Shown here: piece by piece, positions 1,295-32,000 of the stretch
Numbering within the stretch: position 1 is the first letter of the stretch
Layout: each line of letters opens with the position of its first letter
Source: Mechercharimyces sp. CAU 1602
GTDB lineage: Bacteria; Bacillota; Bacilli; Thermoactinomycetales; JANTPT01
DNA: 32,000 bases
Assembly: GCF_024753565.1 (NCBI RefSeq)
Contig: NZ_JANTPT010000001.1
Span: 870,513 to 902,512 of the forward strand
Direction: 5' to 3'
Notes under the pieces: model-generated
Database searches by the model: none
What the model saw: only the letters and a program-made list of their open reading frames with translations
Told to the model about the DNA's origin: nothing
Made by a program: the position numbers and the translations under genes

Positions 1295-1314
1295 TAAAGG
1301 GGGAAAAGATAGTA

Positions 1315-2580: not shown

Positions 2581-2641
2581 GAATGGGGTCACTAAGAAGT
2601 AAGGCTTGCTTTGTATTATAAAGAGAAAGGGGGAATGAGCG

Positions 2642-3325
2642 ATGGGGAAGATTGAAACGATCGGACTACATAAATCTTATGGGGAACGAGAGGCGAAGGT
2701 ATGCGCCTTAAGTGATGTCAATTTGAAAATCGAGCAAGGTGAATTTGTTGCGGTTGTGGGAGCTAGTGGTTCGGGAAAAAGCACACTTTTACATATGTTA
2801 GGCGGATTAGATCACCCAACATCAGGGCAAGTGCGTGTGAGTGGAACATTACTTAATCAATTGAATGAAGACGAGCTGGCGATTTTTCGTCGCCGTCAGG
2901 TAGGGTTTATATTTCAATTCTATAATTTGATTCCAATATTAGATGTGGAAGAAAATATCCGACTTCCATTACTTCTTGATCACAAGTGGAAAGATAAACC
3001 GTATATTGATGAATTGATGGAGTTGTTGGGGTTAATGGAACGAAAGCATCATCTCCCTTCACAGTTATCAGGAGGACAACAACAACGAGTCGCCATCGGG
3101 CGTGCTTTAGCATATAAACCAGCTATTCTCTTAGCTGACGAACCGACTGGGAACTTAGATACGAAAAGTACGGATGAAGTAATGGAATTATTACATCTGA
3201 CTTCACAGCGCTACAATCAGACTGTTATCTTGATCACTCATGATTTAGATATTGCCTCACAAACAGAACGCGTCCTTACGATGCAAGACGGAATGATTGT
3301 GCAAGATGAGGTGATGAGAGGATGA
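2642..3325 (+). CDS. ABC transporter ATP-binding protein (MacB/FtsE-like)
   Basis: Walker A GASGSGKST, Q-loop, signature LSGGQQQRV, Walker B ILLADEPTGNLD, H-loop ITHD. SD AAGGGGGA is upstream. Confidence 0.92.
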   Translation: MGKIETIGLHKSYGEREAKVCALSDVNLKIEQGEFVAVVGASGSGKSTLLHMLGGLDHPTSGQVRVSGTLLNQLNEDELAIFRRRQVGFIFQFYNLIPILDVEENIRLPLLLDHKWKDKPYIDELMELLGLMERKHHLPSQLSGGQQQRVAIGRALAYKPAILLADEPTGNLDTKSTDEVMELLHLTSQRYNQTVILITHDLDIASQTERVLTMQDGMIVQDEVMRG

Positions 3326-5856
3326 AAAGTTATCGTCAGATCACTTGGCGTTATATGAAGCAGGCGAAACGGCGTTCCATTCTTACCATACTAGGCATTG
3401 TGATGTCCGTGGCTATGATCAGTTCACTTAGTACAATGTTGTACAGTTTGTACCAGGAAGAGGTAGAACAAACAATCGCTGATTATGGAACGGCTCATTT
3501 TAGCTATACCAATACCGACGAAAAGTTATATACCACCTTAAAAGGACATGTGGAGGTAGGAGCACTAGGAATCGTCATTCCTGGAGAGGCGAAGCCGATA
3601 GCAGATAAAATAGATGTACAGATTGATGCGTACAATGAGGAAGCTTTGCAGTTGCTCCCGATTCACTTGGGCATGGGCCGCATGCCGCAGTCAGAACGTG
3701 AAATCGTATTGGAACAATGGGTGCTAGAGGGAATGGAAACTTCTCAACAGATAGGGGAAGAGATTCACTTGCCTGGGCAAGAAGGTGATGAGTCGTTTCA
3801 ACTGGTCGGCATATTGGAAAACAACATGTTGTCGCAATATGAGCGCAAAGGGATTGCTATTACGCGCTTAATCGAAGATGAGTATCGTGCAGGGATGCAA
3901 TTACATGTGCAACTAAAAGATGATGTGCCGAGCCGGGAACGTTTAGAAGCGTTTTATCAATTGCAAGAAGATGGATATAACGAAAACGGGAACTACTTGA
4001 GAGTTATCGGGGTTGATCCAGAGAACTACTTTGGAGTTATCATTGTTGGAGCCATTTTAACTTTGCTGGTCGTCGCCGCTACAATCATGGTGGTATACAA
4101 TTCATTCGCTATTTCTATATTGGAGAAAGTGCGTCACTTCGGGGTATTGCGTTCTTTGGGTGCCTCCCCTAAGCAGACCCGAAGGCTGGTATATGCAGAG
4201 GCAATGCTGTATAGTATCTTCGGAATTCCGTTAGGGATTATAGTTGGGATCGGTGCTCTCTATTCCCTGCTCTTTATTGTGGGAACCGAATGGATTAATG
4301 CAGATATGATTCATCTCTCTCCCTTATTATTAGGCATCAGTGCGCTGGTTGGACTGGGATCGATTTTTGCTTCCGCGTATCTACCGGCGCGACGGGCTGC
4401 CAAGATCTCTCCGCTCGATGCAATCTTAGCTCGCGGATCACTTCAGAAAGAAAAGGTGAAGCGGAAAAATGGATGGTTGTTGCGCCATTCAGGAATTGAA
4501 ATACAGATGGCATATAAAAACATGAGACGTAACCGTAAGCGATATTGGGTGACTGTCTCCTCGATTATGATTAGTGCAGTTATGTTTCTTGCGTTTAGTT
4601 CGTTTAGCAATATGTTTATAGGAGACGTGATAACCAATCTGAGCAATGAGGAGAGCAAGACTGCGTTTAGTATAAATAAATCGGTAGATCATTTGGAGAC
4701 AAGTGCCGATGACTCACGAATTTTACCTAAGGATACGGGACGTGAAATTGAACGATTGAAAGCGGAAGTGCTTCCAATCTATGAAGGTTTTTCTCTACAC
4801 ACCATAATCCCTAAAAGCTCAATAAATGTTTCTAAGAAGCAATATGAATCTACGAATATGTTCGCAACACCTTCGGGATTAGATGGCGAGAAGCAATTTG
4901 TTTATACCAGTATCAATATATATGATGAACGCCGTTTCTCCTTGGCAAAATCGTATATAAAATCTGGGGAAATAAATATGAAGCAGTTAGAGGGAGAGAA
5001 GGGCGTATGGCTTGTAATGAACAATCGTATTTATGATAAAGAGAGCAGGGTAACCTTTCTCGATATTGCTGATGTAAGGGTAGGAGATCAGCTTACGCTT
5101 AACTTAGATAATCCGGATGAAGAAGAGGTACAAGCTGGGAAGACAACAAAGGTGAAAGTATTGGGCATCCTAGACCGCTCTCCATTTGGGTCACCTGATG
5201 CATATGGATTTCAGTTGATTACAACTAAGAAGGTTGCTCAAGCGATTCTAAAGGAATGGAATCTGGCGCAGTATCAGAAGCAGGATACCTATATTCCACA
5301 AGTGTCGAATCCAGTGGGATATGATATTCAACTGCATGATGAAAAAGATTACGAAGAGATTAAAAATAAATTGCAGAAAATGGTGAAGGCAGATTCATCT
5401 CTCGATCTAGTTGATCAATATGCTGAGCGTAAAAGAAAACGCGCGGATCAGATTCAAATCCTCGTTTTCTTTTACGGTTTTATCACAGTGGTCGCGTTAA
5501 TTGGATGTGTTAATATCTTTAATACGATTACGACCAATCTGCTCTTACGCCGCCGTGAATTTGCGATGTTACAGACGATTGGGATGAGTAAAAAGCAAGT
5601 ACGAAAGATGGTACTGACTGAAGGTGTGTTGTATGGACTTACAGGGGCGTTTTATGGTTTGTTCTTTGGGCTACTCTTATGTTATCTCATCTATTGGGGC
5701 CTTCAACAAGACATTGGAGTTACTTGGACCATCCCGTGGTTAGATATGCTGATCGTGGTAGGAAGCTCGATTCTGATCGGCATCCTCTCAACGCTCCCTC
5801 CACTAAAGCGACTACGTCATACTGACGTGATACAAGATATTCGCATGGTAGATTAA
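3322..5856 (+). CDS. ABC transporter permease, FtsX-like family, 844 aa with two TM bundles separated by a large soluble region
   Basis: ATGA start/stop overlap with the ATPase gene suggests translational coupling. An N-terminal TM segment (ILTILGIVMSVAMISSL) is followed by hydrophobic clusters near aa 250-370 and aa 740-840, matching a duplicated FtsX permease topology. Confidence 0.85.
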   Translation: MKSYRQITWRYMKQAKRRSILTILGIVMSVAMISSLSTMLYSLYQEEVEQTIADYGTAHFSYTNTDEKLYTTLKGHVEVGALGIVIPGEAKPIADKIDVQIDAYNEEALQLLPIHLGMGRMPQSEREIVLEQWVLEGMETSQQIGEEIHLPGQEGDESFQLVGILENNMLSQYERKGIAITRLIEDEYRAGMQLHVQLKDDVPSRERLEAFYQLQEDGYNENGNYLRVIGVDPENYFGVIIVGAILTLLVVAATIMVVYNSFAISILEKVRHFGVLRSLGASPKQTRRLVYAEAMLYSIFGIPLGIIVGIGALYSLLFIVGTEWINADMIHLSPLLLGISALVGLGSIFASAYLPARRAAKISPLDAILARGSLQKEKVKRKNGWLLRHSGIEIQMAYKNMRRNRKRYWVTVSSIMISAVMFLAFSSFSNMFIGDVITNLSNEESKTAFSINKSVDHLETSADDSRILPKDTGREIERLKAEVLPIYEGFSLHTIIPKSSINVSKKQYESTNMFATPSGLDGEKQFVYTSINIYDERRFSLAKSYIKSGEINMKQLEGEKGVWLVMNNRIYDKESRVTFLDIADVRVGDQLTLNLDNPDEEEVQAGKTTKVKVLGILDRSPFGSPDAYGFQLITTKKVAQAILKEWNLAQYQKQDTYIPQVSNPVGYDIQLHDEKDYEEIKNKLQKMVKADSSLDLVDQYAERKRKRADQIQILVFFYGFITVVALIGCVNIFNTITTNLLLRRREFAMLQTIGMSKKQVRKMVLTEGVLYGLTGAFYGLFFGLLLCYLIYWGLQQDIGVTWTIPWLDMLIVVGSSILIGILSTLPPLKRLRHTDVIQDIRMVD

Positions 5857-5874
5857 TCGTTAGGTATAGTTAAA

Positions 5875-5902
5875 AGCACTCGCTCTAGCGGGTGCTTTTT
5901 TT
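5875..5902 (+). terminator. Rho-independent terminator after the ABC permease
   Basis: AGCACTCGC-tcta-GCGGGTGCT forms a 9-bp stem with one G.U pair, followed by a T-run. It lies 19 nt after the stop codon. Confidence 0.8.
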
Positions 5903-6049
5903 AGATCAGCTCGTCTTGCTCATAAGCGATGGTCTCCTGTTGCATGTTGGGGAAGATGTAGGAATAAGTATTCATTGACATCCTACTGTTAGCGTGATCC
6001 GATGGTCCGCAGTTATAGTTACATTTTCTTTGGAGGAGGGCGTATCCAA

Positions 6050-8155
6050 ATGAGGAGTGTAGAAGAGAGTACCCCGAGAAAAATCCTTTCTTTTGAAAAA
6101 AGCGAGACGACGGAAAATCGAAGAGTACGCTTTAAATTCCTGAAAGATGGAGTTTTATTTAAACTGAATCAATCATCCCAACTCATGCTTCAGTTTAAAA
6201 ATACATGTAAGGGAGCCTACCCTCGCGGTGTAGGACAAAGTAGGATGAGTGATGATTTACATTTCTGTTACGAAAAAGTTGTCTATAAGGGAGTATGGGC
6301 AGGAATAGATATTATCTTCTCATTTAGTGAGGGGGCCCTTAAATACGATATATATCTTGAACCTGGATCTAATGTGAGAGATATTAGATTATCATATGAT
6401 GGTGCACAAGCTCTTTTCTTGGATGAACAAGGGAATCTTCAAATTTATACACCCACTGGCGTCTTTTTGGAGAAAAAACCACTCAGCTTTCAATATACGA
6501 AGGGGAGAGAAGAAGGAATTGAAACGAGATTTATACTTCTTGGCGAATCTACTTTTGGCTTTAAAGTAGAGGGGTATTACGATGAGATGAGCCCTTTGGT
6601 GATTGATCCTGTTATTTTTTATTCAAGCTATGTAGGTGTAAATAATCTTAATCTTGGCATAACTGCAGATTCAGTGGGCAATGCTTATGTAACAGGATTT
6701 ACAGATTCTACTGCTTACCCTGTTACTTCTGGATCATTTCAATCTATGTTTGCTGGTGGGGATGCGTTTATAACGAAGCTAAATTCTGCAGGATCGTCGC
6801 TCATCTATTCGACTTATTTGGGTGGAACGTCTGTTGATGTAGGCTTTGATATCGCGTTAGATACGTTAAATAACGTATATGTGACGGGGTCTACTCAATC
6901 TACTAACTTCCCTGTTACTTCCAATGCATTTCAAACAATGTATAGAGGGGGAACAGACGCGTTTGTCACGAAAATCAATTCCTTGGGATCGTCACTTATT
7001 TATTCGACTTACTTAGGAGGAACCTCTTTCGATACGGGTAATGGAATTGCAGTGGATGCTACGGGTAGTGCTTATGTGACAGGATCAACGGATTCCACCA
7101 ACTTTCCCATTACCTCTGGGTCATTTCAAACTATGATAACAGGGGATAGGGAAGTATTTGTATTAAAGCTAAGTTCTACAGGGTCGTCCCTCATATACTC
7201 ATCGTATTTGGGCGGTGATTTAGTCGACAGTGGGAATGGAATTGCAGTGGACACTAGTGGAAGTGCCTATGTGACAGGATTTGCAGACTCGACAAACTTC
7301 CCTGTCACTTCCGGTGCTTTTCAAACCATGGCAACAGAGGGAATTTCGGCATTTGTGACTAAGATGAGTCCGTTGGGAATGTCATTGATTTATTCAACAT
7401 ATCTAGGCGGGAGCCAAAATGATTTCGGCAGAGGGATCGCGTTGGATGGAGCAAACCAAGCTTATATAGGTGGATTTACTAGTTCTTCGACAAATTTTCC
7501 TGTGACTGCGAATGCATTTCAAACACTCTACGGAGGGGGAAGCTTTGATGGATTTGTAGCGAGGTTAAATCCATCTGGTTCAAAATTGCAGTATTCTACC
7601 TATTTAGGAGGAAGTGATACTGATGTGATCGGACTTAGTACTTCTTTCCAGATCATGGGAAGTGGCGGAGTGGCCATTGATTCATTTGGATATGCATGGG
7701 TTACAGGTATTACTAGATCGACTAATTTTCCAGTAACCTCAGATGCTTTTCAGGATAGTAATGGGGGAGAATCAGATGCTTTCGTTACAAAAATCAGTTT
7801 TTCTGGCCAAGGCCTTTCCTTCTCTTCGTATCTTGGGGGAGGGAGTTCTGATGAAGGGGTTGATGTAGCTGTTGATAGTAGAGACAGCGCATTTATGACT
7901 GGTGATACAAACTCAACCAACTTCCCTGTCACTTTTCAAGCGTATCAGACTCAACTGTTAACTCCGCCGAATGGGTTTGTCACAAGAATAGATTCTTCAT
8001 TAGGAACCGGACAAACAGGAGCGACAGGTCCTACCGGACCTACGGGAGCCACTGGATCGCAAGGAACACAGGGATCGAGAGGTCCAAGGGGGCTTCGAGG
8101 ACGGCGTGGACCAAGAGGGCCGCGGGGAAGTAGCGGAGGAGAAACGGGGTTGTAA
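6050..8155 (+). CDS. SBBP-type beta-propeller repeat protein (7 repeats) with C-terminal collagen-like Gly-X-Y tail
   Basis: Seven ~60-aa repeats share the pattern YSTYLGG..xD.G.GIAVD..G.AYVTG.T.STNFPVTS.AFQ. The C-terminus reads GQT GAT GPT GPT GAT GSQ GTQ GSR GPR GLR GRR GPR GPR GSS GGE. The ATG at 6050 is preferred over 6002 because GGAGGAGGG (6032-6040) lies 9 nt upstream. No N-terminal signal peptide is evident. Confidence 0.8.
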   Translation: MRSVEESTPRKILSFEKSETTENRRVRFKFLKDGVLFKLNQSSQLMLQFKNTCKGAYPRGVGQSRMSDDLHFCYEKVVYKGVWAGIDIIFSFSEGALKYDIYLEPGSNVRDIRLSYDGAQALFLDEQGNLQIYTPTGVFLEKKPLSFQYTKGREEGIETRFILLGESTFGFKVEGYYDEMSPLVIDPVIFYSSYVGVNNLNLGITADSVGNAYVTGFTDSTAYPVTSGSFQSMFAGGDAFITKLNSAGSSLIYSTYLGGTSVDVGFDIALDTLNNVYVTGSTQSTNFPVTSNAFQTMYRGGTDAFVTKINSLGSSLIYSTYLGGTSFDTGNGIAVDATGSAYVTGSTDSTNFPITSGSFQTMITGDREVFVLKLSSTGSSLIYSSYLGGDLVDSGNGIAVDTSGSAYVTGFADSTNFPVTSGAFQTMATEGISAFVTKMSPLGMSLIYSTYLGGSQNDFGRGIALDGANQAYIGGFTSSSTNFPVTANAFQTLYGGGSFDGFVARLNPSGSKLQYSTYLGGSDTDVIGLSTSFQIMGSGGVAIDSFGYAWVTGITRSTNFPVTSDAFQDSNGGESDAFVTKISFSGQGLSFSSYLGGGSSDEGVDVAVDSRDSAFMTGDTNSTNFPVTFQAYQTQLLTPPNGFVTRIDSSLGTGQTGATGPTGPTGATGSQGTQGSRGPRGLRGRRGPRGPRGSSGGETGL

Positions 8156-17074: not shown

Positions 17075-20000
17075 ATGTCTAATAAGAGAAAACGACGATG
17101 GATACATAAAAGTTTCATGATCTTATTTGTATGTATATTCCTATTTACGAGTGTGGCCCCTGCTCCCGCAGCCTTAGCGGCAGGAAGCGCACCAACATCT
17201 ACAAACGATGCCTTATTCGGAGGGTCTTGGGCTCACGTATTTAGCTCGGTGTGGCTTCAGACCCGTGCGACTGGCGAAAAGGTGTTGGCGCAAGTAAAAG
17301 AAGTTTTTACAACGGAAGAGGAAGAGGATAAGGAGGGTGAAGAACCCACCGATCCGGAGGAGGGAAAGGAGGAAAGCGATGACCCACCTGAGATTGTAAA
17401 AGAACGGGAAGAAGAACGCGATGCCCATACGAAAGTGTTTGAGCTCGAGGATGGGCGCATGCAAAAAGAAGTGAGCGCCACCCCGGTTCACTATGAAAAT
17501 GAGAAAGGGGAGTGGGAAGAGATTCAACTGGGAGTAGAAGCTTCGGATGAGTCCAAGTTTGTCCTCTCGAATGAATCCAATACGTTCCAAACCCACTTTG
17601 GCAAAACAGCGGATCAATTGGTGCGTTTTGAACAAGGGGATCATCGGATTGAGATGAAAGCCCTGGAAGCGAGCGATGTGGTTCCAGAAGGAAAAGAGCA
17701 TCAGGTAGTGTTTAAACAGCTGTGGCAGCAGACCGATCTTTTGTATGACATTGGTCCAGATTCGCTCAAAGAGACGATTCGTATGAATAGTGTCCCGACG
17801 AACCCGGTCTATACCTTTGAGTTCACCTTGACAGGACTGTATGCAGAACAAAAAGAAGATGGTGCCATCGCCTTCTTTAGTAAGAAAGATGACACATTGG
17901 TCTACATGATACCGAAACCGTTTATGATGGACAGCAAGGAAGATCCAGAGTCTCCCTATGGGTTTTCATACAGTGAAAACGTGACGCAGACGATGGAAGC
18001 CGACGGCGATACATTAACGGTGACGTTGGCGGCAGATGAGGAATGGTTACAAGCGGAGGAACGGGTCTATCCGGTCTTGTTGGACCCCACCATTGTCCTT
18101 TCACCACCGGAAAAAGAGAGTCAAGATACGTATATTAATAGTGGAAACCCTGATCAGAACTATGATAACACTTGGCAAATGAAGGTGGGAACCAGTAGTG
18201 GCGGTTCCAAATACCGGGGACTGGTCCGCTTTAACCTAGACACCATCCCGGAAGGGGAGCGCTTAGATCAAGCGACCCTATCCCTGTATTATGATCAGGA
18301 TATCTATCTCCCTGAAGGGGGAGATACGTATAGCGTCCCAATCACGGTTCATAAAGTAAAAGAAGCGTGGGATCCCGATTCGGTGACGTGGAAGTACGCA
18401 GGCGAAGGAGATAACTGGAAGGATGGCGGGGCTTATGACGCGACGGCCCTCGATCAGGAAACGAAACAGGTTGGGCACACCAATCGCTGGCACCGCTTTA
18501 ATGTCACCTCCACCGTTCAGTCGTGGTTAAACAAAAGCAGTAAAAACTATGGGTTTTTGCTCAAAGCGAAAACGGAGTCCAACAATCATGGGGGCACGGT
18601 TTACGTCACAAGTGAACTCTATGATCCGACGATCCCCGTGCGACCGAAACTGACCCTGATCTATGGTCAACCCAGTGTCACAGTGAAAGAACCACAAAAG
18701 ATTCATAGCACAGGGGCAGAACTGGAGTGGTCCAAGTTTGCTGATGGGGAGGAGTTTGTGGAGTACCAGGTGCACCGCAGTACCGATCAGCAGTTTGTTC
18801 CCGATGCGTCTACGCTCGTCACTCCGATTGATGACCGCTTCGATATTCGCTTTACGGATACTACCGTGGAGCCCACCCCCATCGAAGATGAGAACCGTGT
18901 CGGTCAAATCTACTACTATATGGTGGCCGTGAAGACGAAAGATGGAAAATTGCATCCTTCCAGCACCGTAATGGCACAACTACCGAAAGCGGGACTTACA
19001 CGCGTCTTGGTGCGGGGTGCGGAAGATACAACCCTATCGAGTAAAAAGTCGAGTACGAACTTGAACGATATTGAGCGCTACCCTTGGCTTCAAGTGGGCA
19101 TTAAGGGGAACGAATATGGAACGACCCGCTCCGTGTTTGATTTTGACCTTAGTATGATCCCAGAAGATGCGCAAGTGTTTGATGCCCAGTTTCAGGTATG
19201 GGCATGGTACATGTGGCGTCCTCAAGGGGTGACGGGAAAAGCCAAATATCGACTGCATGAGTTGACTCACCGTTTTGATGAGTCCAGTGCGACCTGGAAA
19301 ATAGCGGCCAATGGAGATAACTGGACTGATGGTGGACAATATGACTCTACCGTCCTGGACGAAATCTCGGAAATATCGAATGACTCGCGCTGGCGAACGT
19401 TTGATGTGACCGGAGTTGTAGGGGATTGGGTTACAGGCAAAAAGAAAGAGTATGGTTTTATACTCAAGCAAGCCGATGAGGGCAGTGAGAAGAATAGTGA
19501 ACGAACCTTGTTCCTCAATAGCGAGGCACAAGAAACGTCCCTCCGTCCAACCCTTGAAGTGATCTACACTACACCGACGACGGAAAGCACCTATCATACG
19601 ACGGATACCCCACAGGTGATGGAGGGCGGGGAAACATATGACATCGATATCACCCTCACCAACACGACAGATCGTATCTGGAAACAAGGGGAGCAATCGG
19701 TGGCCTATCGCTGGGCCGACCTACAGACGCCGCAAGGAACCGATCGCGTCAATCTCCCTAAAGACGTGAAGCCGGGAGAGACGATTCGCTTGAAAGCGGA
19801 AGTGCATGCGCCGCAGTTGAAAGGAAAGGGCGCGTACCGCGAATCCCGGATGATCGAGTGGGACCTGATCGACCACAACGGGAAGTGGCTGTCCGAGCAT
19901 GCCCAAGGCATCCCTGCTCTGCAACAGGCGATTGTTGTGGAATCGAAGCCCGACGCCAAAAAGCTGGGTTTTGAACCGGATCGCGGCCTGATCACCGAGC

Positions 20001-26000: not shown

Positions 26001-28693
26001 GCGGCCAGAAGGTCGTCTTGACCGACAAAGCCGATGGCGTCGTCATCGCCGATAGCATCAAGCTAGTGGAGAAGGCGCCGATGAAGACGGATAAGAAAAC
26101 CTTCACCTACGATTACGACCTGAACGGCAACCTGACGGAGCTGGAAAGTCAGACGCCAGAAGCGGCAGAAGCCTACCGAATCGACTATAACGACCTCGGT
26201 CAAGTGGAAGCCCTGCAAAAAGTGGTGGGCGATCAGGTGCAGCAGACGGTCGGGTATGCCTATGATGTCAACGGTAACTTAACCAAGCGCGCGTATGGAG
26301 GCACCACGCAGACATACACCTATACCGAGCGCAACATGCTACAAGCGATCCAGGAACAAGGCAACGAGAGCGCCGACCCTCGCACGTGGTCGTATGCCTA
26401 CACCAAGCGGGGGCAAGTGAAGCAGACGAACGAGCCCAACGGCAACGTCACGCGCTTTGAGCACTACGCCGACGGCCTACTCAAAGCGAAGACCACGACC
26501 AAGGGCGATGGCACCGTGCTCAACCAGCACGAGCTCACCTACAACGAGAACGGTCACCGCATCGAAGAAGCCTTACAACTGCTGGACGCCGACGGGAACA
26601 AGGTGGAGAGCAACACGAAGTACGAATACGATCCCCGTGATCGCGTCACCTCGATGGTAAAAACGGGCGACAACCCGCTCACCGAGTCGGTGGTGTTAGA
26701 TGCCAACAGCAACATCGTTTCCCACACGCAAGATGGGAAAACGAAAACCTACACCTATGACCGCAATCGTATGATGACGCAGACCGCGGAGGGGAAGACC
26801 CAGCAGTACGACTACGACACCACCGGTCGCCTGCACACGGTTACCCAAGGGAAGCAGGTGGAAGAAAGCTACGCCTATGATGGCTTTGACCGCCTGAAGG
26901 AACACACCAAGCTTCAAGAAGATGGTACGCTGAACACATCTCAGTATACGTACGATGCGTTTGACCGGACAATGAGTAAAACCGGCAATGCAGGGACGGC
27001 AGAGGAGACAACCACCGACTTCCACTACCTGGGCTTGTCGGAGGAGATACTAAGCGAAGAAGTGGCCGGCAAGATTACGCGCTCCTACACGTACGCTCCC
27101 TGGGGACAGCGTCTCTCCATGACGCATCATGAAAAAGGAGAAACCTCCTACTACGGCACCAACACCCGCGGCGACGTGGAGATGTTGTATGATGAGAAGG
27201 GGAACGTCCGCGGCACCTACGGCTACACGATGTACGGCGAAGACCAACAAAGCGCCTTCACCGGAGTAGACCAACCGGGGAATGCCCTGTACAACCCGTA
27301 TCGTTACACCCAAAAACGCTGGGACGCAGATACCAACAGCTACGACCAGGGTTTCCGGAATTACAACCCAAGTCTAGGCCGCTTCCACACACGGGATATG
27401 TATAGCGACGCGGCACAGGATATGGGACTGGCGATGGGTTTAGCGACAAACAGTCGCTACGCATTCGCAGGAGGTAATCCGGTATCGTATAGCGAATTGG
27501 ATGGTCATATTCCGGTAAAAGAAGATACCAGGACGGCGATGAAGGATATCCAGGATGCAGGGTTTGACTATTCTCCAAGCAAGGGATTAACGCCAAAGCC
27601 AAATCCAAAGCCTAGGACAAAGCCGAAACCGAAACCATCTCCATCAACGAGCAGCAAATCGAGCAAACCATGTTATCAGAGTAAAACTAACTATGGTTGT
27701 GGTAGCACTAAGCCAAATGCAGCTGACAAAGTCATTATTGGAATGGGTACGCAGTTTGCCGATGGAGTGACCGGATTATGGGCTTGTGGTAGTGACGTGG
27801 CAGGTTGCTATAGTAGCACGGCTGATTTTTACAAGTTGGCATGGAATGATCCTACAGCAGCAGTAAGTCAGACTTGGAATGGTTCTGGGATTGTAGAAGA
27901 CTGGCGAGATGGCAATTATGGAGGTTCTATTGGAAGAACGATAACTTCAGCATTACCATTAGTAGCAGCCCGCAAGGCATTGAAAACACCTGAAATGTGT
28001 TTTGTTGCTGGGACATTGATTCTTACCTCAGATGGTGAAAAGCCCATCGAAGAAATCGAAGTCGGGGATAAAGTTCTCTCCAAAAACGAGAAAACAGGAG
28101 AGATGGAATACAAAGAAGTCACCCAACTCTTCCAGCGTGAAGTGGACGAGATTTACGAAGTTCATGTTGATGGAGAAATGATTGAAACCACGGATGAACA
28201 TCCTTTCTGGGTGAAAGGTCAAGGCTGGATGAGTGCACAAGATCTCCAGACAGGAGATGAGCTGGAAACCAGTGAAGGTGATTTCCTTTCAGTGGAGAAA
28301 GTAATCCGTAAGAAGCAGGAAAACCCCGTCAAGGTGTACAACTTTGAGGTAGCGGATTTCCACACGTATTTTGTTTCGGATCTGCATGTATTTGTGCATA
28401 ACAAGTGTGTAGTAGGTGATAAAGATGCATTTGTTCCGGAAGAACATTGGGAGAAAAAAGCTGAGCACTTTGGGACACCAGGAACCCAGTATGACCACTA
28501 CAGGTATTACAAAGGTAAGTGGGAAGAATCTAGAGTCATTTATGACTTTGCAGGTAGACAACAATATAGAGTAGATCTTGCCGATCACAGCATGCCTGAA
28601 TCACATTCTATTCCTCATTTACATGAATACAAGTATGATGATCCGGGATATGGAATAAAAGGAAAAGAGTTCGTTTATAATTTCTGGGAATAA
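17075..28693 (+). CDS. Secreted RHS/YD-repeat polymorphic toxin, 3872 aa. Order: signal peptide, 2x DNRLRE-like domain, FN3, Ig-like domain, YD repeats interrupted by 5 golvesin-C-like domains, RHS core, linker, Hint, C-terminal toxin
   Basis: A single uninterrupted ORF with SD GAGAGGAAA 8 nt upstream. The Sec-type signal is KRKRRW plus a hydrophobic core plus ALA|AG. There are many YD repeats (YTYD..GN, YEYD..GN, Y.YD..GR). The RHS core end reads YYGTNTRGDVEMLYDEKGNVRGTYGYTMYGE...NPYRYTQKRWDADTNSYDQGFRNYNPSLGRFHTRDMY...GGNPVSYSELDGH. Then follow the Hint domain and a variable tip. Confidence 0.95.
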   Translation: MSNKRKRRWIHKSFMILFVCIFLFTSVAPAPAALAAGSAPTSTNDALFGGSWAHVFSSVWLQTRATGEKVLAQVKEVFTTEEEEDKEGEEPTDPEEGKEESDDPPEIVKEREEERDAHTKVFELEDGRMQKEVSATPVHYENEKGEWEEIQLGVEASDESKFVLSNESNTFQTHFGKTADQLVRFEQGDHRIEMKALEASDVVPEGKEHQVVFKQLWQQTDLLYDIGPDSLKETIRMNSVPTNPVYTFEFTLTGLYAEQKEDGAIAFFSKKDDTLVYMIPKPFMMDSKEDPESPYGFSYSENVTQTMEADGDTLTVTLAADEEWLQAEERVYPVLLDPTIVLSPPEKESQDTYINSGNPDQNYDNTWQMKVGTSSGGSKYRGLVRFNLDTIPEGERLDQATLSLYYDQDIYLPEGGDTYSVPITVHKVKEAWDPDSVTWKYAGEGDNWKDGGAYDATALDQETKQVGHTNRWHRFNVTSTVQSWLNKSSKNYGFLLKAKTESNNHGGTVYVTSELYDPTIPVRPKLTLIYGQPSVTVKEPQKIHSTGAELEWSKFADGEEFVEYQVHRSTDQQFVPDASTLVTPIDDRFDIRFTDTTVEPTPIEDENRVGQIYYYMVAVKTKDGKLHPSSTVMAQLPKAGLTRVLVRGAEDTTLSSKKSSTNLNDIERYPWLQVGIKGNEYGTTRSVFDFDLSMIPEDAQVFDAQFQVWAWYMWRPQGVTGKAKYRLHELTHRFDESSATWKIAANGDNWTDGGQYDSTVLDEISEISNDSRWRTFDVTGVVGDWVTGKKKEYGFILKQADEGSEKNSERTLFLNSEAQETSLRPTLEVIYTTPTTESTYHTTDTPQVMEGGETYDIDITLTNTTDRIWKQGEQSVAYRWADLQTPQGTDRVNLPKDVKPGETIRLKAEVHAPQLKGKGAYRESRMIEWDLIDHNGKWLSEHAQGIPALQQAIVVESKPDAKKLGFEPDRGLITEPTGAGTALTANLFEGNTMFDYTPFANPSRGFATAPQMTYNSRDFSDSLVGPGWSFALTNMMRLGTPSNSKGVKMVNGKIESGKVFMIDGDGTQYSFTYDKGKKKFVGPKGIHLSLKLHSTKDKARMWKITAKDGSKYYFDDKGYVSETTDRNGIKMTYTYESRRIGNHNVKLLRYLTDTEGRRTIKVEYYSSKETSNLKIQQQVKRLTDISGYKVEFAYDHEGRLTQITEGAGSKEERKYQLSYEFNLLRTITDPKGNTTKAYYDDGGHLTKIIDRQGEETTIHYRTTLDDKEQPVTLVTDPMGRQMATTFNDQGKPIEVVNANNEKTRYEWDDELNLVKQIAPNDATATWTYDDNGNVLTYKSPLYHQQQQAQQQAAEEANVLEKLWDKVTGAVEKAPLVGTAGTTGKGYTQYAYDYREEGQVADLVQSVSPEGRVTTYEYNDEGHLLKVHAPQGNTLSSYDDAKKRYRVETSGNYTTTYTYHKGGLGLLESVKDAKGRVSRYTDYDANGQPQTITDPAGNVTRLHYGKRGEVLQVTDALGNTSTYTYDTFLRPLTSKVPKDASAGEYITIPAPVYDENDNIVKAVSPNGAHVTYTYNKNDWVTSATLPKDSEKGPIRKITYQYDKMGNLIRETQPKGNHQEGVITLDNRDDAHIASGIWGTSTNMPGYRGEDYQYNRVGGGDTFTWNFQLPEDGEYRVSVNYAQARDRAIDAPYTLKTKDGDVTKRVDQTTNGGTWVDLGIHPFASGANQIVQSDDASEGTYVIADAIRIEKVNEGEEKKETADGSTQYIYDRLNRVQAVVNSQGHRVTYEYDQVGNVTQVTEPKGVASDDPDDYRTTYEYDVNGRAIKETDALGNSIAFAYSPDGLLTRVTDEEGNVTTASYDQNGNLIEMRTPHDDGENVTQYVYDQVGNLTETITPRGVATSAKGDYTHKTIYDELDRVKEVIYPRDPNSQDPREREEQKLSYEYDPLSRITDIIAPASEGQALRNQTKLTYFDNGWIKETTDPHQIKTRYQYNDLGQTTQRTLLGEDGTKTREMTWDYFPDGKVKKEVDIGENRDIVVVESTDSKVEVDGIWNKSGVCTWDVSSFQDGTTNDDAEIYLTSTDPVRQSSVTFYQKEGGEWKEIGEDPAFVEKSRVVPARGEVKAVIKGPARGQVTYEMHEYDPDNPDEYIGKCTVDTSLRNVAGDGNQSFTWNVTPPQDGEYDVYAQYVSGSDRATDAPYTIHFEGGTDVKKVNQQESGSQWVWLGTYPFRAGSGGKVTLTDRANGTVSADSVRLVRRGEKEARFVDEDEDEGEAVDATTQLEKLTTTCTWKDAGAYADGPKEDPVHMAELYLKKDQADGKESHAVFYRGDKGKWTKLGEDTFTEQSAIVSFPETGELKVEITQPVGGESTFHLQEYDPDDNGENPDEYVGVCYADTKEPEQKWTFSDEITSVWIVDDADAFKDGTNGQAEFFLKKSRYDGKKTKAVFYEGRDGNWKKIGEDDGFTLKSSSVNYTPGGKLKIVVTQPLGGVSSLNLYEDDTEGLEDVHVASHALPTVLGDGFRWKGRGTGEGTFTWKLKTEESGEYTVYAHAAGGPTSATNAPYTIHHADGKTEKRVNQQAYAGEWVKLGTYRFDAGTSYPLVLSDEANGKVSADGIKMVWAGPTGAVIDNTDDAHVKAEGDWTERDDVTTECTWDGIDAYHDGTAPPLKAELYLEKDQADGQSTSVTFYDRSGDEWKKIGEDPDFLEKSAVASSEGKEAKAEITHAVDSTSTYHLMEYDPDDPVENEDEHIGSCDAQRPEGENYAQVEKGDGSSTFTWNLDLKQNGAYAIYVKGLKHSAYATDAPYTIHHESGTDTVNVNQRERGDEWTLLGTYPFQKGENPRVVLSNKANGTVVADSLKIVKAEPRELVFDNAEASANAGGSGWTTSSNVPGYYGKDYLWNEEGSGADTITWNLDIPKTMEYTVYARYLSYKDRASDAPYTIYHADGKKTVDVNQQERGSEWVELGTYSFDKGSGQKVVLTDKADGVVIADSIKLVEKAPMKTDKKTFTYDYDLNGNLTELESQTPEAAEAYRIDYNDLGQVEALQKVVGDQVQQTVGYAYDVNGNLTKRAYGGTTQTYTYTERNMLQAIQEQGNESADPRTWSYAYTKRGQVKQTNEPNGNVTRFEHYADGLLKAKTTTKGDGTVLNQHELTYNENGHRIEEALQLLDADGNKVESNTKYEYDPRDRVTSMVKTGDNPLTESVVLDANSNIVSHTQDGKTKTYTYDRNRMMTQTAEGKTQQYDYDTTGRLHTVTQGKQVEESYAYDGFDRLKEHTKLQEDGTLNTSQYTYDAFDRTMSKTGNAGTAEETTTDFHYLGLSEEILSEEVAGKITRSYTYAPWGQRLSMTHHEKGETSYYGTNTRGDVEMLYDEKGNVRGTYGYTMYGEDQQSAFTGVDQPGNALYNPYRYTQKRWDADTNSYDQGFRNYNPSLGRFHTRDMYSDAAQDMGLAMGLATNSRYAFAGGNPVSYSELDGHIPVKEDTRTAMKDIQDAGFDYSPSKGLTPKPNPKPRTKPKPKPSPSTSSKSSKPCYQSKTNYGCGSTKPNAADKVIIGMGTQFADGVTGLWACGSDVAGCYSSTADFYKLAWNDPTAAVSQTWNGSGIVEDWRDGNYGGSIGRTITSALPLVAARKALKTPEMCFVAGTLILTSDGEKPIEEIEVGDKVLSKNEKTGEMEYKEVTQLFQREVDEIYEVHVDGEMIETTDEHPFWVKGQGWMSAQDLQTGDELETSEGDFLSVEKVIRKKQENPVKVYNFEVADFHTYFVSDLHVFVHNKCVVGDKDAFVPEEHWEKKAEHFGTPGTQYDHYRYYKGKWEESRVIYDFAGRQQYRVDLADHSMPESHSIPHLHEYKYDDPGYGIKGKEFVYNFWE
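27958..28411 (+). repeat. Hint-coding repeat, copy 1 (in the expressed RHS gene)
   Basis: 454 nt, collinear with 29721..30175 (455 nt, the extra A) and, from 28034 on, with 31433..31810 (378 nt each). Confidence 0.9.
27998..28402 (+). other. Hint (pretoxin-HINT / bacterial intein-like) domain inside the RHS protein
   Basis: The domain starts at Cys (CFVAGTLILTSDGEKPIEEIEVGDKV), has a TxxH-type block (IETTDEHPFW) and ends ...HVFVHN. It spans about 135 aa with no endonuclease insert. Confidence 0.85.
28403..28693 (+). other. Variable C-terminal toxin tip (CT1), family not recognised
   Basis: KCVVGDKDAFVPEEHWEKKAEHFGTPGTQYDHYRYYKGKWEESRVIYDFAGRQQYRVDLADHSMPESHSIPHLHEYKYDDPGYGIKGKEFVYNFWE. It lies immediately after the Hint HN. 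Sequence diverges completely from the two downstream cassettes at this point. Confidence 0.7.
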
Positions 28694-28766
28694 TCATTGC
28701 AAGCAACCTGTCATAAAACACACATGACAGGTTGCTAATCAAATCGTAATAGGAGTCGTTATAACA

Positions 28767-29360
28767 ATGGAAAATTTTTTGGATGTTAAACCCCTCGATT
28801 GCTTTGTAGATGTAGACTCACAAGAAAAACTTGATGACTTCTTTAAATTAACACATAATCTTCATGATGGCTTAATTAAAGAGATGCATATCATAAATGA
28901 AGCCTATGTAGATAGTGATCTGTCAATGTCGGCTGATTTCCAATATAACCTCAGGATTCTCATTCAAAAGCAATGGAAAAATCCATCTGCGATAGAGATA
29001 TTACTTGGGAACGTTAGCAAATTAGATTTGGTGGAGTCCAACTATTTGTCTAATGCATTTGGTGAATACAAGGAAAATAAGATGAATGGGAAAAAAACTA
29101 TTAAACTCGATTTTGATTGTAATAGAATAACTTGTTCAAGGATGCTATATCGTGATGCTTCCAATTGGATGGGTAGAGAGAGTCGCTTTGGAGAAGAAAT
29201 TGTTCTATCCTCTCTAATGCCTGTAGAAGATTTAGGAGAGGGATGGTACATGTGTACAAATTGCACACATACTTGGAAGCCAAATAATCGATTAATCAAA
29301 CGTTGCCCAAATTGTGGGGGTAAGAACAGTGGATATGGATGGATAAGTAGCCCGAGTTAG
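28767..29360 (+). CDS. Putative cognate immunity protein for CT1, with C-terminal CxxC...CxxC zinc ribbon
   Basis: It is the first gene after the toxin stop, on the same strand, AT-rich, with no signal peptide. The C-terminal motif is CTNCTHTWKPNNRLIKRCPNCGG. The role is inferred from position only. Confidence 0.6.
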   Translation: MENFLDVKPLDCFVDVDSQEKLDDFFKLTHNLHDGLIKEMHIINEAYVDSDLSMSADFQYNLRILIQKQWKNPSAIEILLGNVSKLDLVESNYLSNAFGEYKENKMNGKKTIKLDFDCNRITCSRMLYRDASNWMGRESRFGEEIVLSSLMPVEDLGEGWYMCTNCTHTWKPNNRLIKRCPNCGGKNSGYGWISSPS

Positions 29361-29638
29361 ATATATATCTAAATAATGTGGACGTTTTGGCTTAAGTCTG
29401 ACTATAAACTCTAATTATTTGACCGCTTTTGACCGCTATACCAGAAAAACAGTGCTATCATGGTTGTGAGGTAGTTCATGGAGCTGAAACAGGACAATAC
29501 TTATAAGGAATATTCCAGTTGAACCGACCGACATGTTGTCAGTCAGTTAGCTGTTCACAGGCACCCGAAAGGGTGTTTTTGTTTGGAATAAAAAGGGGAG
29601 GGTCAACCGTCCACAATGAATAAAGAGGGTGTCCACCT

Positions 29639-29725
29639 GTGAAGAAACCACTACCGTTCTACAATAGCAAGGAGTGGAAGAAGGCACGTGAGTCGGTTCT
29701 GATACGTGGCAACTACCTGTATTAG
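29639..29725 (+). pseudogene. 5' fragment (28 codons) of an HNH-endonuclease-like gene, cut off at the orphan-cassette junction
   Basis: GTG-initiated VKKPLPFYNSKEWKKARESVLIRGNYLY* resembles the N-terminal FY.S..W...R..VL.RD.Y.C..C region of small phage-type HNH endonucleases. The reading frame ends where the Hint repeat begins (29721). Confidence 0.45.
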
Positions 29726-30175
29726 TAGCAGCCCGGAAGTTATTGAAAACACCTGAAATGTGTTTTGTTGCTGGGACATTGATTCTTACCTCTGAAGGCG
29801 AAAAGCCCTTCGGAGAAATCGAAATTGGGGATAAAATTCTCTCCAAAAATGAGAAAGTAGGAGAGATGGAATACAAAGAAGTCACCCAACTCTTCCAGCG
29901 TGAAGTGGATGAGATATACGAAGTTCATGTAGATGGAGAGGCCATTGAAACCACGGAAGAGCATCCTTTCTGGGTAAAAGGTCAAGGCTGGGTGAGTGCA
30001 CATGACCTTCAGTCAGGAGATGAGCTGGCAACTAGTGAAGGTGAATTTCTTTCAGTAGAGAAAGTAATCCGTAAGAAGCAGGAAAAACCCCGTCAAGGTG
30101 TACAACTTTGAGGTAGTGGATTTCCATACGTATTTTGTTTCGAATCTGCATGTATTTGTGCATAATCAGTGTGTA
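29721..30175 (+). repeat. Hint-coding repeat, copy 2 (orphan cassette 1)
   Basis: Starts at ATTAGTAGCAGCCCG and ends at ...GTGCATAATCAGTGTGTA. Differences from copy 1 are scattered and mostly synonymous or conservative. Confidence 0.9.
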
Positions 30176-30481
30176 TTAGATAAAGGGGCTCCAACTCATG
30201 TATACTTGGGTTTGAAAAATGGAGAAATTACTTATGTGGGAATTGCTAAAGATCCAGCCAAACGTGCTCAACAGCATGGAGATAGATTTGATTTGTTAAC
30301 ATCAATTACTACTGAACCATTGAGTAGAAGGAGGGCTCGAGCAATTGAACAGTCATTCATCAATGATAATCCTCACTTCTCGATTAAAATTAATAGCACC
30401 AGCCTGAGAAGATCATGGTATGATGATGCAGTTGAATGGGGAGATAATTGGAGAAGGAAAAATGGGTATAAGACAGATTAA
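29743..30481 (+). pseudogene. Orphan cassette 1: Hint domain plus GIY-YIG-like nuclease toxin (CT2), split by a +1 frameshift
   Basis: Track ORFs 29743..30111 and 30098..30481 are the two halves. Together they parallel residues LKTPEMCFVAG...VFVHN of the main gene. The A5 run at 30083-30087 replaces the A4 run of the main gene (28320-28323) and shifts the frame. There is no SD or promoter, and the frame has no ATG upstream of the Hint Cys other than the one immediately preceding it. Confidence 0.8.
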
Positions 30482-30569
30482 GAGTTACAACGTAGTTATG
30501 TAATAAAAGGTTAGGGGATGACATATTTATCCCCTACTTCCTGTTAATAATGAAAAGGGGTTATAACTC

Positions 30570-31058
30570 ATGGATCATTTGGTTAAGATGATTCCCTCAA
30601 GAAAAAGACCAAAGAGAGGGGACGTGTTTGTTATTCAGCCGAAAGAAGGCATCTATGCTTTTGGGCTTGTTGTTCGTATTAAGATTCCAAGTGAAAATTT
30701 GATGATTAATGGTATGAGCCTTGTATATGTATACAAGTTTCTTTCATTAAAAAAGGAAGTTCCAAAGGATCTGATGTCGCAAGATCTCCTTTTTCCACCC
30801 CAAATTATTAACAACCAAGGATGGTTAAAGGGTTACTTTCAAACAATAGGGTTCTTGGATATAACTGAATTTATGAAAAGAGATTATGGTTTTTGGGATA
30901 TTACTATAAAGAAAATAGTCGATGAAGAAGGAAATCCAATAAATCATAAACCTAAATATATCGGTGATTATGGAGTCGGAAGCTATGGATCGATTTCATA
31001 TGATGTGAAGCGTGCTTTAGATGAATTTCCTGAGTTGTTAGAGGGAATTAAGGGATAA
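30570..31058 (+). CDS. Putative immunity protein for the GIY-YIG-like orphan toxin
   Basis: A 162-aa ORF directly downstream of CT2 on the same strand, AT-rich, with SD AAAGGGG 9 nt upstream and no signal peptide. The role is inferred from position. Confidence 0.55.
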   Translation: MDHLVKMIPSRKRPKRGDVFVIQPKEGIYAFGLVVRIKIPSENLMINGMSLVYVYKFLSLKKEVPKDLMSQDLLFPPQIINNQGWLKGYFQTIGFLDITEFMKRDYGFWDITIKKIVDEEGNPINHKPKYIGDYGVGSYGSISYDVKRALDEFPELLEGIKG

Positions 31059-31249
31059 TTTTCGCATTGTTACTCAAATATATGTGGATCGGCTATAGTA
31101 GATTGGACCGGAAAATTAAGGTCGAGTTTGACCGGGAACAATGAAGGGAGTAAACTGTACAGGCTTATGAGTGTAGTCCAGAAGAGTAGAGTGAGGGGAA
31201 TTAAATCCTTGCTCTACTCTTCGTTTATTCAATTCAGCGCTATGACGCC

Positions 31250-31326
31250 TACGGGCCGTACCCTGAGCAAAACGGGCAACGCAGGCATGGAAACGGAAGA
31301 GACAACCGCCTTCGCTTACTTGAGTC
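31250..31326 (+). pseudogene. Diverged relic of RHS-core coding sequence
   Basis: GRTLSKTGNAGMETEETTAFAYLS parallels DRTMSKTGNAGTAEETTTDFHYLGLS of the main gene (about 26960-27032). It is embedded in the otherwise meaningless track ORF 31128..31355. Confidence 0.6.
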
Positions 31327-31414
31327 GTAAGCGTAAAATAACCCCCACCTGTTAGTCCGATGGGGGTTGAAGTATGCTTTAATTATCCTTCTTGATACGT
31401 AGGATGTCGGGTAG

Positions 31415-32000
31415 GGCAGGCGACTTGCAGAGGGCGAAAAACCCATTGAAGAGGTCGAAGTGGGGGACAAAGTTTTCTCCAAAAACGAGAAAACAGGAGA
31501 GATGGAATACAAAGAAGTCACCCAACTCTTCCAGCGTGAAGTGGACGAGATTTACGAAGTTCATGTCGATGGAGAAATGATTGAAACCACGGATGAACAT
31601 CCTTTCTGGGTGAAGAGTAGAGGATGGACGAAAGCGAAGAATCTCCAGTCAGGAGATGAGCTAGAAACCAGTGAGGGAGAAATTCTTCCGGTTGAGCAGG
31701 TGGTTCGCAAGAAGAAGGAAAACCCCGTCACAGTGTATAACTTTGAGGTAGCGGATTTCCACACGTATTTTGTTTTGGATATGCACATCTTTGTGCATAA
31801 CAAGTGTGTAGACGAAGCGAAAATGAGTGGTCAATTACGTGAAGCAGCGGCAGATAAGGGGAATTTTGGAATTGGTGAAGGCAGTTCTAATGAAGCTGAT
31901 TTGATGGGTAAAGCATGGGTTGGCCCTGGATATAAAATAGCTAGTGATGGTAAAACTCATGTGAGTTTGGATGGTATGAGGCAGTATCGTCCACCAAGTT
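31415..32000 (+). CDS. Orphan cassette 2: 5'-truncated Hint domain (lacks Cys1) plus third toxin tip (CT3), continuing past the right edge
   Basis: Absent from the ORF track because there is no ATG start and it runs off the edge. The frame is open from 31415: GRRLAEGEKPIEEVEVGDKVFSKNEKTGEMEYKEVTQLFQREVDEIYEVHVDGEMIETTDEHPFWVKSRGW...IFVHNKCVDEAKMSGQLREAAADKGNFGIGEGSSNEADLMGKAWVGPGYKIASDGKTHVSLDGMRQYRPPS... It is probably silent as it stands. Confidence 0.7.
31433..31810 (+). repeat. Hint-coding repeat, copy 3 (orphan cassette 2, 5'-truncated)
   Basis: Contains a 139-nt tract (31476..31614) that differs from copy 1 (28077..28215) at a single position. Ends at ...GTGCATAACAAGTGTGTA, exactly as copy 1 does. 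Confidence 0.9.

Follow-up and report, generated by a model that had tools for sequence, protein, structure and literature searches.

We report here the analysis of a 32,000-nt stretch of DNA from Mechercharimyces sp. CAU 1602 (contig NZ_JANTPT010000001.1, positions 870,513 to 902,512, forward strand), which as a whole is called the window and which contains a polymorphic toxin locus of the RHS type. The locus comprises one long expressed gene, in which a Hint domain precedes a C-terminal toxin tip (CT1), and two further copies of the Hint-coding DNA downstream, each leading into a different tip (CT2 and CT3). These downstream units are referred to as orphan cassettes, and the Hint-coding DNA as the handle. 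All features are collected in Table 1.

Table 1. Features of the toxin locus, in window coordinates
Feature	Position	Strand	Description and basis
Expressed polymorphic toxin gene	17075..28693	+	3872 aa; open reading frame (ORF) list, Pfam
RHS core end (…NSRYAFAGGNPVSYSELDGH)	27359..27508	+	tblastn against 77 loci; GC profile
Handle copy 1	27958-28411	+	inside the 3872-aa ORF 17075-28693; DNA common to the orphan cassettes
PT-HINT domain proper	27998..28402	+	Cys1 (27998-28000) to His-Asn (28397-28402); Pfam PF07591
CT1 tip	28412..28693	+	C-terminal toxin-domain family outside curated libraries
Putative CT1 immunity gene	28767..29360	+	197 aa, C-terminal zinc ribbon, 35.9% GC; position and composition
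Terminator-like hairpin upstream of cassette 2	29559..29578	+	consensus scan only
HNH-like fragment	29640..29723	+	GTG-initiated, 28 codons (VKKPLPFYNSKEWKKARESVLIRGNYLY); cut off exactly at the start of handle copy 2
Handle copy 2	29723-30175	+	full-length Hint coding; +1 frameshift at the A5 run 30083-30087
CT2 tip	30176..30481	+	GIY-YIG/URI-like nuclease
Terminator-like hairpin between CT2 and Imm26	30512..30536	+	consensus scan
Imm26-family immunity gene	30570..31058	+	162 aa, 34.6% GC; PF15428, E 4e-14, 53.2 bits against a cut-off of 23.3
Terminator-like hairpin after Imm26	31181..31222	+	17 pairs; consensus scan
Frameshifted RHS-repeat relic	~31229..31340	+	…YDAYG/RTLSKTGNAG…TAFAYL; tblastn E 4e-4
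Handle copy 3	31427-31810	+	Hint coding, 5'-truncated
Gene-conversion patch	31476-31614	+	138/139 the same as 28077-28215; sole mismatch at 28168
CT3 tip	31811..32000	+	partial, continues beyond the window edge

The expressed gene and the three Hint-coding copies

From its N-terminus, the main protein is composed of a Sec-type signal, Disaggregatase-like repeats, RHS repeats interspersed with five Golvesin_C domains, the RHS core end, a linker, the PT-HINT domain and CT1. In Pfam the five Golvesin_C domains are matched at 2e-157, RHS_repeat at an E-value of 2.6e-81 in nine stretches, and PT-HINT at 2e-32 over residues 3648-3776. The N-terminus (MSNKRKRRWIHKSFMILFVCIFLFTSVAPAPAALA) reads by eye as a putative Sec signal. 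Between residues ~350 and ~3000, Golvesin_C, Disaggregatase-like repeats and TGF-beta-propeptide-like matches are interleaved with the RHS blocks, which makes an unusually long and decorated RHS scaffold; among the homologues inspected, only that of Salinithrix shares the decoration. On the opposite strand of the RHS gene, a frame of 964 codons stays open (21467-24361), most likely as a by-product of the GC-rich repetitive coding strand and not as a gene.

The scaffold has a G+C content (GC) of 53.5%, against 44.6% for the flanking chromosomal genes, and the step in the GC profile from ~55% to ~45% coincides exactly with the RHS core end and not with the junction of Hint and tip; after Hint the profile falls again, to ~36%. 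By composition, what lies beyond the RHS core (linker, Hint and tip) is an extension of the kind known from classical Rhs elements. The core-end motif itself, NPVSYSELDGH (27473-27508), aligns with the NNPxxYxDPxGH of relatives and has Glu-Leu in place of Asp-Pro; the relatives carry DPxGH, DLDGH or DPDGH, and Salinithrix has the same Glu-Leu variant. With such a core end the aspartyl self-cleavage of RHS proteins may be changed, in which case Hint would remain the sole release site.

Based on repeat finding, a MAFFT alignment and an in-register count, the three Hint-coding copies are direct repeats in the same orientation, with copy 2 agreeing with copy 1 at 414 of 454 positions (91%) and copy 3 at 336 of 384 (87.5%). 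All of them score as PT-HINT in Pfam (112.5, 72.6 and 103.7 bits for copies 1, 2 and 3 respectively, against a cut-off of 27.7). Their alignability stops directly after HN(K/Q)CV, the sequences across the boundary being HNKCV-VGDK, HNQCV-LDKG and HNKCV-DEAK, and what follows are the mutually unrelated tips VGDKDAF… (CT1), LDKGAPTH… (CT2) and DEAKMSGQ… (CT3). The preliminary description of this DNA, in which three Hint copies lose similarity at one codon boundary and run into three unrelated tips, is thus borne out by all three methods. It had also taken the Hint-coding DNA, and not the RHS core end, as the handle, and indeed no copy of the core end is found downstream in the window; the Hint-coding segment is the only DNA now common to the orphans and the expressed gene. 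No match to PT-VENN appears in the Pfam scan.

The two orphan copies are damaged in different ways. In copy 2 one additional A is present, with A5 where copy 1 has A4 (28320-28323), and the resulting frameshift splits the coding sequence into two ORFs in different frames, 29743-30111 and 30098-30481; the run is a homopolymer, so the frameshift may conceivably be a sequencing error. Over the last 88 nt of copy 2, the longest stretch that agrees perfectly with copy 1 measures 33 nt. Copy 3 is without the first ~23 Hint residues and has no start codon; stops in its frame occur just upstream, and its offset from copy 1 (3399 = 3 x 1133) keeps the two in phase.

Bacterial intein-like (BIL) domains of the A type are characterized by Cys1, TxxH and a C-terminal His-Asn, occur in variable regions of secreted bacterial proteins, and cleave themselves. 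The same residues are present here in copies 1 and 2, and Cys1 is missing from copy 3. The name covers the type of domain and not the organisation of a locus. Across the family alignment TxxH and HN do not vary, every sequence that retains its N-terminus has Cys1, and the family-wide similarity ends at HNxC. By analogy with A-type BIL and Hint domains, cleavage is predicted to follow the terminal Asn and so to free the toxin; with such a cut after His-Asn, the junction between constant and variable sequence would lie three codons past the scissile bond.

Gene conversion in the window and tip exchange in relatives

Copy 3 contains a tract of 139 nt that differs from copy 1 by a single mismatch, exactly as the preliminary description gave it, and the tract is non-random, for when the 47 mismatches were permuted 200,000 times over the 383 sites, a run as long never arose (p < 5e-6). 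The mismatch lists show the direction of the event: the divergence of copies 1 and 2 is 9.4% inside the tract and 9.8% outside, and that of copies 2 and 3 is 9.4% inside and 23.8% outside. Since the divergence between copies 2 and 3 falls inside the tract and that between copies 1 and 2 is unchanged, it is copy 3 that has been overwritten by a copy-1-like donor. The patch is therefore a gene-conversion tract, with a copy-1-like donor and copy 3 as the recipient, and it means that the handles of the expressed gene and of an orphan do pair and exchange DNA. The synonymous divergence (dS) is 0.23 between copies 1 and 2, and 0.78 between copies 1 and 3 outside the tract, with ratios of nonsynonymous to synonymous divergence (dN/dS) of 0.15-0.27 among the Hint copies. 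By these values the copies are old and have diverged under purifying selection as working Hint domains. Each cassette therefore brought a Hint of its own and is a gene end, either former or imported, and not a recent duplicate.

The closest homologue of the scaffold is a 3020-aa protein of Salinithrix halophila, 50-63% identical up to HNKC, after which it continues into a Tox-HNH-EHHH tip; two Imm50 genes and two PT-HINT orphans come next. In Paenibacillus dendritiformis, an RHS-PT-HINT gene is likewise followed by two Hint orphans, with handles 96-99% identical and one orphan keeping an RHS fragment (both contexts were obtained by exact protein look-up). The best protein matches to the linker, Hint and CT1 taken together are 61-63% identical, mostly 200-550 aa in length, and named 'polymorphic toxin-type HINT domain-containing protein' by NCBI; they come from Thermoactinomycetaceae, Paenibacillus, Brevibacillus and Cohnella.

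We then present an overall view of how often the array recurs, based on 75 related Bacillales loci with one genome per species. On the whole, 27 of the 75 loci (about a third) have 2-6 co-oriented Hint copies, of which the first typically ends an ORF of 1300-2800 codons, and the later ones are 5'-truncated to a variable extent, end at Hint residues 148-151, and each carry a tip of 85-170 aa. More than half of the adjacent Hint pairs (27 of 51) share at least 80% identity in the final 150 nt of Hint, and beyond the boundary almost nothing aligns in 25 of these 27. An all-vs-all comparison of the tips gives at least 8 main/orphan pairs with 84-99% identity, in which a tip is expressed in one species and orphan in another.

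The most detailed case is given by two sister Thermoactinomyces genomes, sp. DSM 45891 (locus L004) and DSM 45892 (locus L006), which are colinear with 90% DNA identity to the end of Hint. The tip and immunity gene of L004 match those of the fifth Hint copy, i.e. the fourth orphan, of L006 (92% over 1220 nt); the switch takes place inside Hint, and over the Hint segment L004 is no closer to one of the two L006 copies than to the other. In L004 (10049-11843) the tip and immunity gene have been replaced as a unit, homology to the first L006 spacer then resumes (L004 11368-11843 against L006 11508-11983), and the remainder of the six-copy L006 array is not present. The exchange within the Hint handle that had been proposed is thus seen twice, as the conversion patch in the window and as the tip switch inside Hint in L004/L006, and the comparison of genomes for tip exchange that the preliminary description asked for is positive in these nearest available relatives.

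Tips, immunity genes and surrounding features

CT1 has no match in Pfam or NCBIfam, lax thresholds included. A word-indexed homology search returns one homologue each for CT1 and CT3, and the CT1 family emerges only with an exhaustive HMMER search, which gives 153 cluster representatives; in every case the domain is C-terminal, and the proteins that bear it measure 55-4132 aa. Among the 38 members scanned, RHS repeats are found in 12, PT-HINT in 3, TcdB/SpvB in 3, LXG in 1 and PT-TG in 1. The core of the family is D..GRQ.YR.D..DH..P..HS.PHLH, in which D, G, R, D, two H and P are invariant. An AlphaFold2 model of CT1 (mean confidence, pLDDT, 92) is five-stranded and all-beta, and neither a sequence profile nor Foldseek finds a relative in the PDB. 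The closest homologue, with 66% identity, is located in Lysinibacillus (locus L078) as an orphan behind a PT-TG toxin, the similarity starting directly after the TG motif, so that the same tip is used with a different pre-toxin handle; the L078 array (1828-6247) also holds an HNH fragment. The C-terminal position of the family on varied scaffolds suggests that CT1 is a genuine mobile toxin tip.

The gene after CT1 gives just weak zinc-ribbon matches in Pfam and NCBIfam at lax thresholds, and from its position and composition it is the candidate CT1 immunity gene. Both this gene and the one after CT2 are AT-rich in comparison with the flanking genes and still more with the scaffold, as the preliminary description had remarked. 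Between the toxin stop and the candidate gene there is a perfect 12-bp inverted repeat (GCAACCTGTCAT…ATGACAGGTTGC, 28706-28736) with no T-tract after it, which might modulate read-through into the immunity gene.

CT2 matches GIY-YIG in Pfam with 18.6 bits, which is under the cut-off of 22.6, and its sequence shows the residues Y…YVG…R…RAIE…N. On this sub-threshold match and its Imm26 partner, CT2 is probably Tox-URI1. The pairing of Tox-URI1 with Imm26 is listed together with 'Proteases: HINT; Repeats: RHS' in Zhang et al. 2012 (PMC3482391), and is thus a documented toxin/immunity pairing. CT3, which leaves the window at its right edge as noted earlier, has no Pfam or NCBIfam match even at lax thresholds and one homologue, a 93-aa metagenomic protein (P0122) with 71% identity. 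The coding sequences of CT2 and CT3 are open over the entire visible length. None of CT1, CT2 and CT3 is found in the 77 fetched loci, the sole related item there being an Imm26 relative in L034.

The HNH-like fragment before copy 2 resembles the N-terminus of phage-type HNH endonucleases weakly (PHROG, E 1e-4 to 3e-2), and may mark the junction of an insertion or deletion. The RHS relic before cassette 3 matches residues ~3293-3325 of the main protein and lies ~100 nt upstream of copy 3, from which it follows that cassette 3 was once a longer rhs 3' fragment and has suffered an internal deletion. The spacers 29361-29722 and 31059-31426 resemble neither one another nor anything else in the window or in the other loci. 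A promoter scan finds fewer sites than in shuffled sequences, hence no promoter signal, and an Rfam scan of 28600-32000 with E-values up to 1 finds no RNA family.

Upstream of the toxin gene, a rib operon, scpA/scpB, a DUF2953 gene and ytfJ place the locus on the chromosome of a spore-forming member of the Bacillales; the greatest similarity is to Thermoactinomycetaceae. In addition, a response regulator, a histidine kinase, an ABC ATPase and an 844-aa FtsX-type permease are encoded in a row at 605-5856 and look like a Bce-type module for peptide-antibiotic sensing and resistance; a 717-aa SBBP beta-propeller/DUF7948 protein follows (6002-8155).

Comparison with known systems and interpretation

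In the general model of polymorphic toxins (PMC3113570, PMC3482391), a constant 5' body precedes a 3' toxin that varies, cassettes of toxin and immunity gene recombine with the tip, and Hint is the releasing peptidase just before the toxin. The locus shares with the RHS/Sec-dependent class of these surveys (Zhang, Iyer, Aravind 2011/2012) the putative Sec signal, the RHS repeats, Hint before the variable toxin, an immunity gene directly downstream, and stand-alone toxin-immunity cassettes able to recombine with the 3' tip. Nothing essential differs; what is particular here is the unusual scaffold, with five Golvesin_C and Disaggregatase-like repeats, and tips (CT1 and CT3) that are outside Pfam. 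Hint DNA as the common homology of the cassettes is not described in the passages of the two papers that were consulted.

That design is found in MafB class 1 of Neisseria, where orphan cassettes led by Hint/BIL are proposed to recombine with the full gene (PMC4287609, PMC4524018). There the 5' end of mafB-CT encodes a BIL domain without its first 7 residues (Jamet et al. 2015), a slight 5'-truncation; the common region is proposed for tip replacement, and the same tips are expressed or orphan across strains. The MafB scaffold, however, is DUF1020 in a Gram-negative organism, against RHS in a Gram-positive one here (no DUF1020 appears in the Pfam scan of the main protein), the Neisseria BIL cassettes often have their own TTG start, and Hint is optional in MafB and a constant part of the scaffold family here. 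We would thus draw the analogy for the design of the cassettes only.

With the enterobacterial Rhs main/orphan loci (Poole 2011; Koskiniemi 2013, 2014) and the cdiA-CT/cdiI loci of contact-dependent inhibition (CDI), the locus shares a main gene, an immunity gene and 5'-truncated orphan tip/immunity pairs. Recombination between main gene and orphan is proven in Salmonella Rhs, where it goes through a handle of 522 bp at 95%, follows a duplication, and is accompanied by the loss of rhsI-main (PMC3967940); the handles here are 454 bp at 91% and 384 bp at 87.5%. In Rhs the event joins the main gene to the tip of the orphan and costs it its immunity gene, like the deletion predicted for this locus. 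The differences concern, first, the handle, provided in Rhs/CDI by the VENN region or by the Rhs core as far as DPxGL and here by Hint, the core end (…SELDGH, 27508) lying ~450 nt upstream and being absent from the orphans save for the RHS relic before cassette 3; second, export, by type VI or type V secretion systems there and through a putative Sec signal here; and third, release, for which the Rhs aspartyl autoprotease serves there and a Hint domain is added here. On the whole, the locus works like a classical enterobacterial Rhs/CDI orphan system, yet it is not of that subtype. The contrast with the classical handle drawn in the preliminary description is therefore true, but it is already in the literature and common in Bacillales; the implied novelty falls away, as PF07591 carries the very family name 'Pretoxin HINT', the MafB cassettes have been published, and the 27 Bacillales loci are built alike.

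Our analysis is best explained by an RHS polymorphic-toxin locus of the PT-HINT type in which one orphan (CT3) is recombination-competent and the other (CT2/Imm26) is degenerate, and to this explanation we assign a probability of about 0.8. On this explanation the 3872-aa RHS protein would be exported by Sec, Hint would cut after His-Asn and CT1 would be released, with its immunity gene located downstream; what follows would be two promoter-less 3'-gene fragments, one made up of Hint, CT2 (a URI nuclease) and Imm26, and the other of the RHS relic, the truncated Hint, CT3 and whatever lies beyond. Homologous recombination would act in the Hint DNA common to the cassettes and the expressed gene. 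Since Hint is the last constant module before the tip, it is the DNA that the cassettes have in common with the expressed gene, and cassette 3, as its relic indicates, once carried RHS sequence; Hint is thus likely to be a handle through its position, and not a dedicated device that replaced the core.

No homology exists 3' of the tips within the window, therefore a double crossover is not available, and the locus can recombine internally only through unequal exchange of sister chromosomes or through loss of the DNA between two direct repeats. A RecA-type crossover between copies 1 and 3 would delete 3399 bp, restore a complete Hint and fuse the scaffold in frame to CT3, at the cost of CT1 with its immunity gene and of CT2 with Imm26, unless, as in Salmonella, a duplication precedes it. 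With copy 2, a crossover in the first ~360 nt of the handle would lead to a truncated protein, and an in-frame CT2 fusion would come from the last 88 nt only. The earlier statement that a single crossover would replace CT1 with either tip is thus restricted, for CT2, to these 88 nt; it also left out that any crossover would remove the CT1 immunity gene together with CT1. The frameshift makes cassette 2 degenerate, and this cassette probably persists mainly for its Imm26 immunity gene.

Several points weigh against this explanation. No fusion of the main gene to CT2 or CT3 is observed for this organism; exact look-ups of both immunity proteins return no conspecific genome, and the best Hint homologues are 61-66% identical. 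The identity of the handles, 87-91%, is under the 95% of the Salmonella case. The difference between L004 and L006 is a replacement of tip and immunity gene, not the deletion that a single crossover predicts, and the 197-aa gene is unrelated to the gene after the Lysinibacillus homologue of CT1 even though the toxins are 66% identical. The self-cleavage of Hint, the toxicity of CT1 to CT3 and the immunity role of the 197-aa protein are predictions from sequence. The frameshift of copy 2, and the truncation and decayed RHS relic of copy 3, may mean that the cassettes are decaying rather than held in reserve.

This last point leads to the rival with the best standing, although we consider it doubtful as a full account, namely that the cassettes are decaying relics of past tip displacement, in which Hint is no longer a handle and selection keeps the orphan immunity genes against the toxins of neighbours. 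The +1 frameshift, the loss of Cys1, the frameshifted relic and the high dS (0.23-0.78) are all consistent with it, as are the in-frame stops and terminator-like hairpins upstream of each orphan with no enrichment of promoters, and immunity ORFs that are intact, each after a purine-rich stretch that is possibly a ribosome-binding site (by eye). However, the conversion patch shows that the handles still pair and exchange, the coding of CT2 and CT3 is open as far as it is visible, and relatives carry the same tips in expressed and orphan positions with junctions inside Hint. The two explanations are compatible and do not exclude each other, and cassette 2 fits the decay of a relic well.

It is also worth considering, though tentatively, that the Hint DNA is a handle not by position alone and may be actively kept recombination-competent through gene conversion from main gene to orphan, i.e. 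a concerted evolution of the protease-coding segment, in which the same ~400 nt would fix both the release site of the toxin and the switch junction of the cassettes. The directional 139-nt patch backs this idea, and so does the identity of Hint copies within loci, 85-97% in many relatives, against 55-66% protein identity between species. To our knowledge, such coupling of release site and switch junction via conversion has not been analysed for RHS/PT-HINT loci.

Far less probable is that the orphan Hint-CT units are translated on their own from internal starts and cleave themselves in the cell, as proposed for the TTG-initiated BIL-mafB-CT of Neisseria and raised as a possibility for MafB in PMC4287609. 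The ORF of copy 2 does run from a TTG (29743) six codons before Cys1, and many homologues are annotated as complete HINT proteins of 200-450 aa with Met a few residues before Cys1. But this TTG is a conserved Leu codon also in the main gene, nothing like a correctly spaced ribosome-binding site is seen before it by eye, and the frame of copy 2 is lost before the C-terminus of Hint; copy 3 has neither a start codon nor Cys1, and the units have no signal peptide, hence no export route, and lie behind terminator-like hairpins.

A true intein, or a mobile intein/homing-endonuclease element copied around the locus, is effectively refuted. Weak matches to Intein_splicing and intein_Nterm exist and an HNH-endonuclease-like fragment adjoins copy 2, but PT-HINT scores 112 bits against at most 30 for the intein models, no conserved host extein is interrupted and no endonuclease is nested in Hint, the residue after Asn is K or Q instead of a C/S/T nucleophile, and the sequence downstream of each copy is another toxin tip, together with the immunity gene that belongs to it. 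Finally, that a single Hint region was mis-assembled into three is hardly credible: apart from the existence of the repeats and an A5/A4 difference possibly due to homopolymer sequencing error nothing speaks for it, the copies differ at 9-19% of sites with unique flanks and tips and are therefore no assembly duplication, and dozens of independent genomes, complete chromosomes included, have this multi-copy layout as well.

The locus changes no concept, since its design was predicted by the polymorphic-toxin surveys of 2011-2012, was described for MafB in 2015, and is present in about a third of the related loci. What this window adds is a directional gene-conversion patch, in which handle and orphan are seen still interacting, a cassette in decay, with frameshift and RHS relic, that illustrates the life cycle of orphans, and a tip family, CT1, with no entry in curated libraries and no solved structure. 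It is a clean example of warhead diversification in Gram-positive RHS toxins, in which the swap junction lies three codons after the predicted cut site, so that any imported tip would be released with the same short scar.

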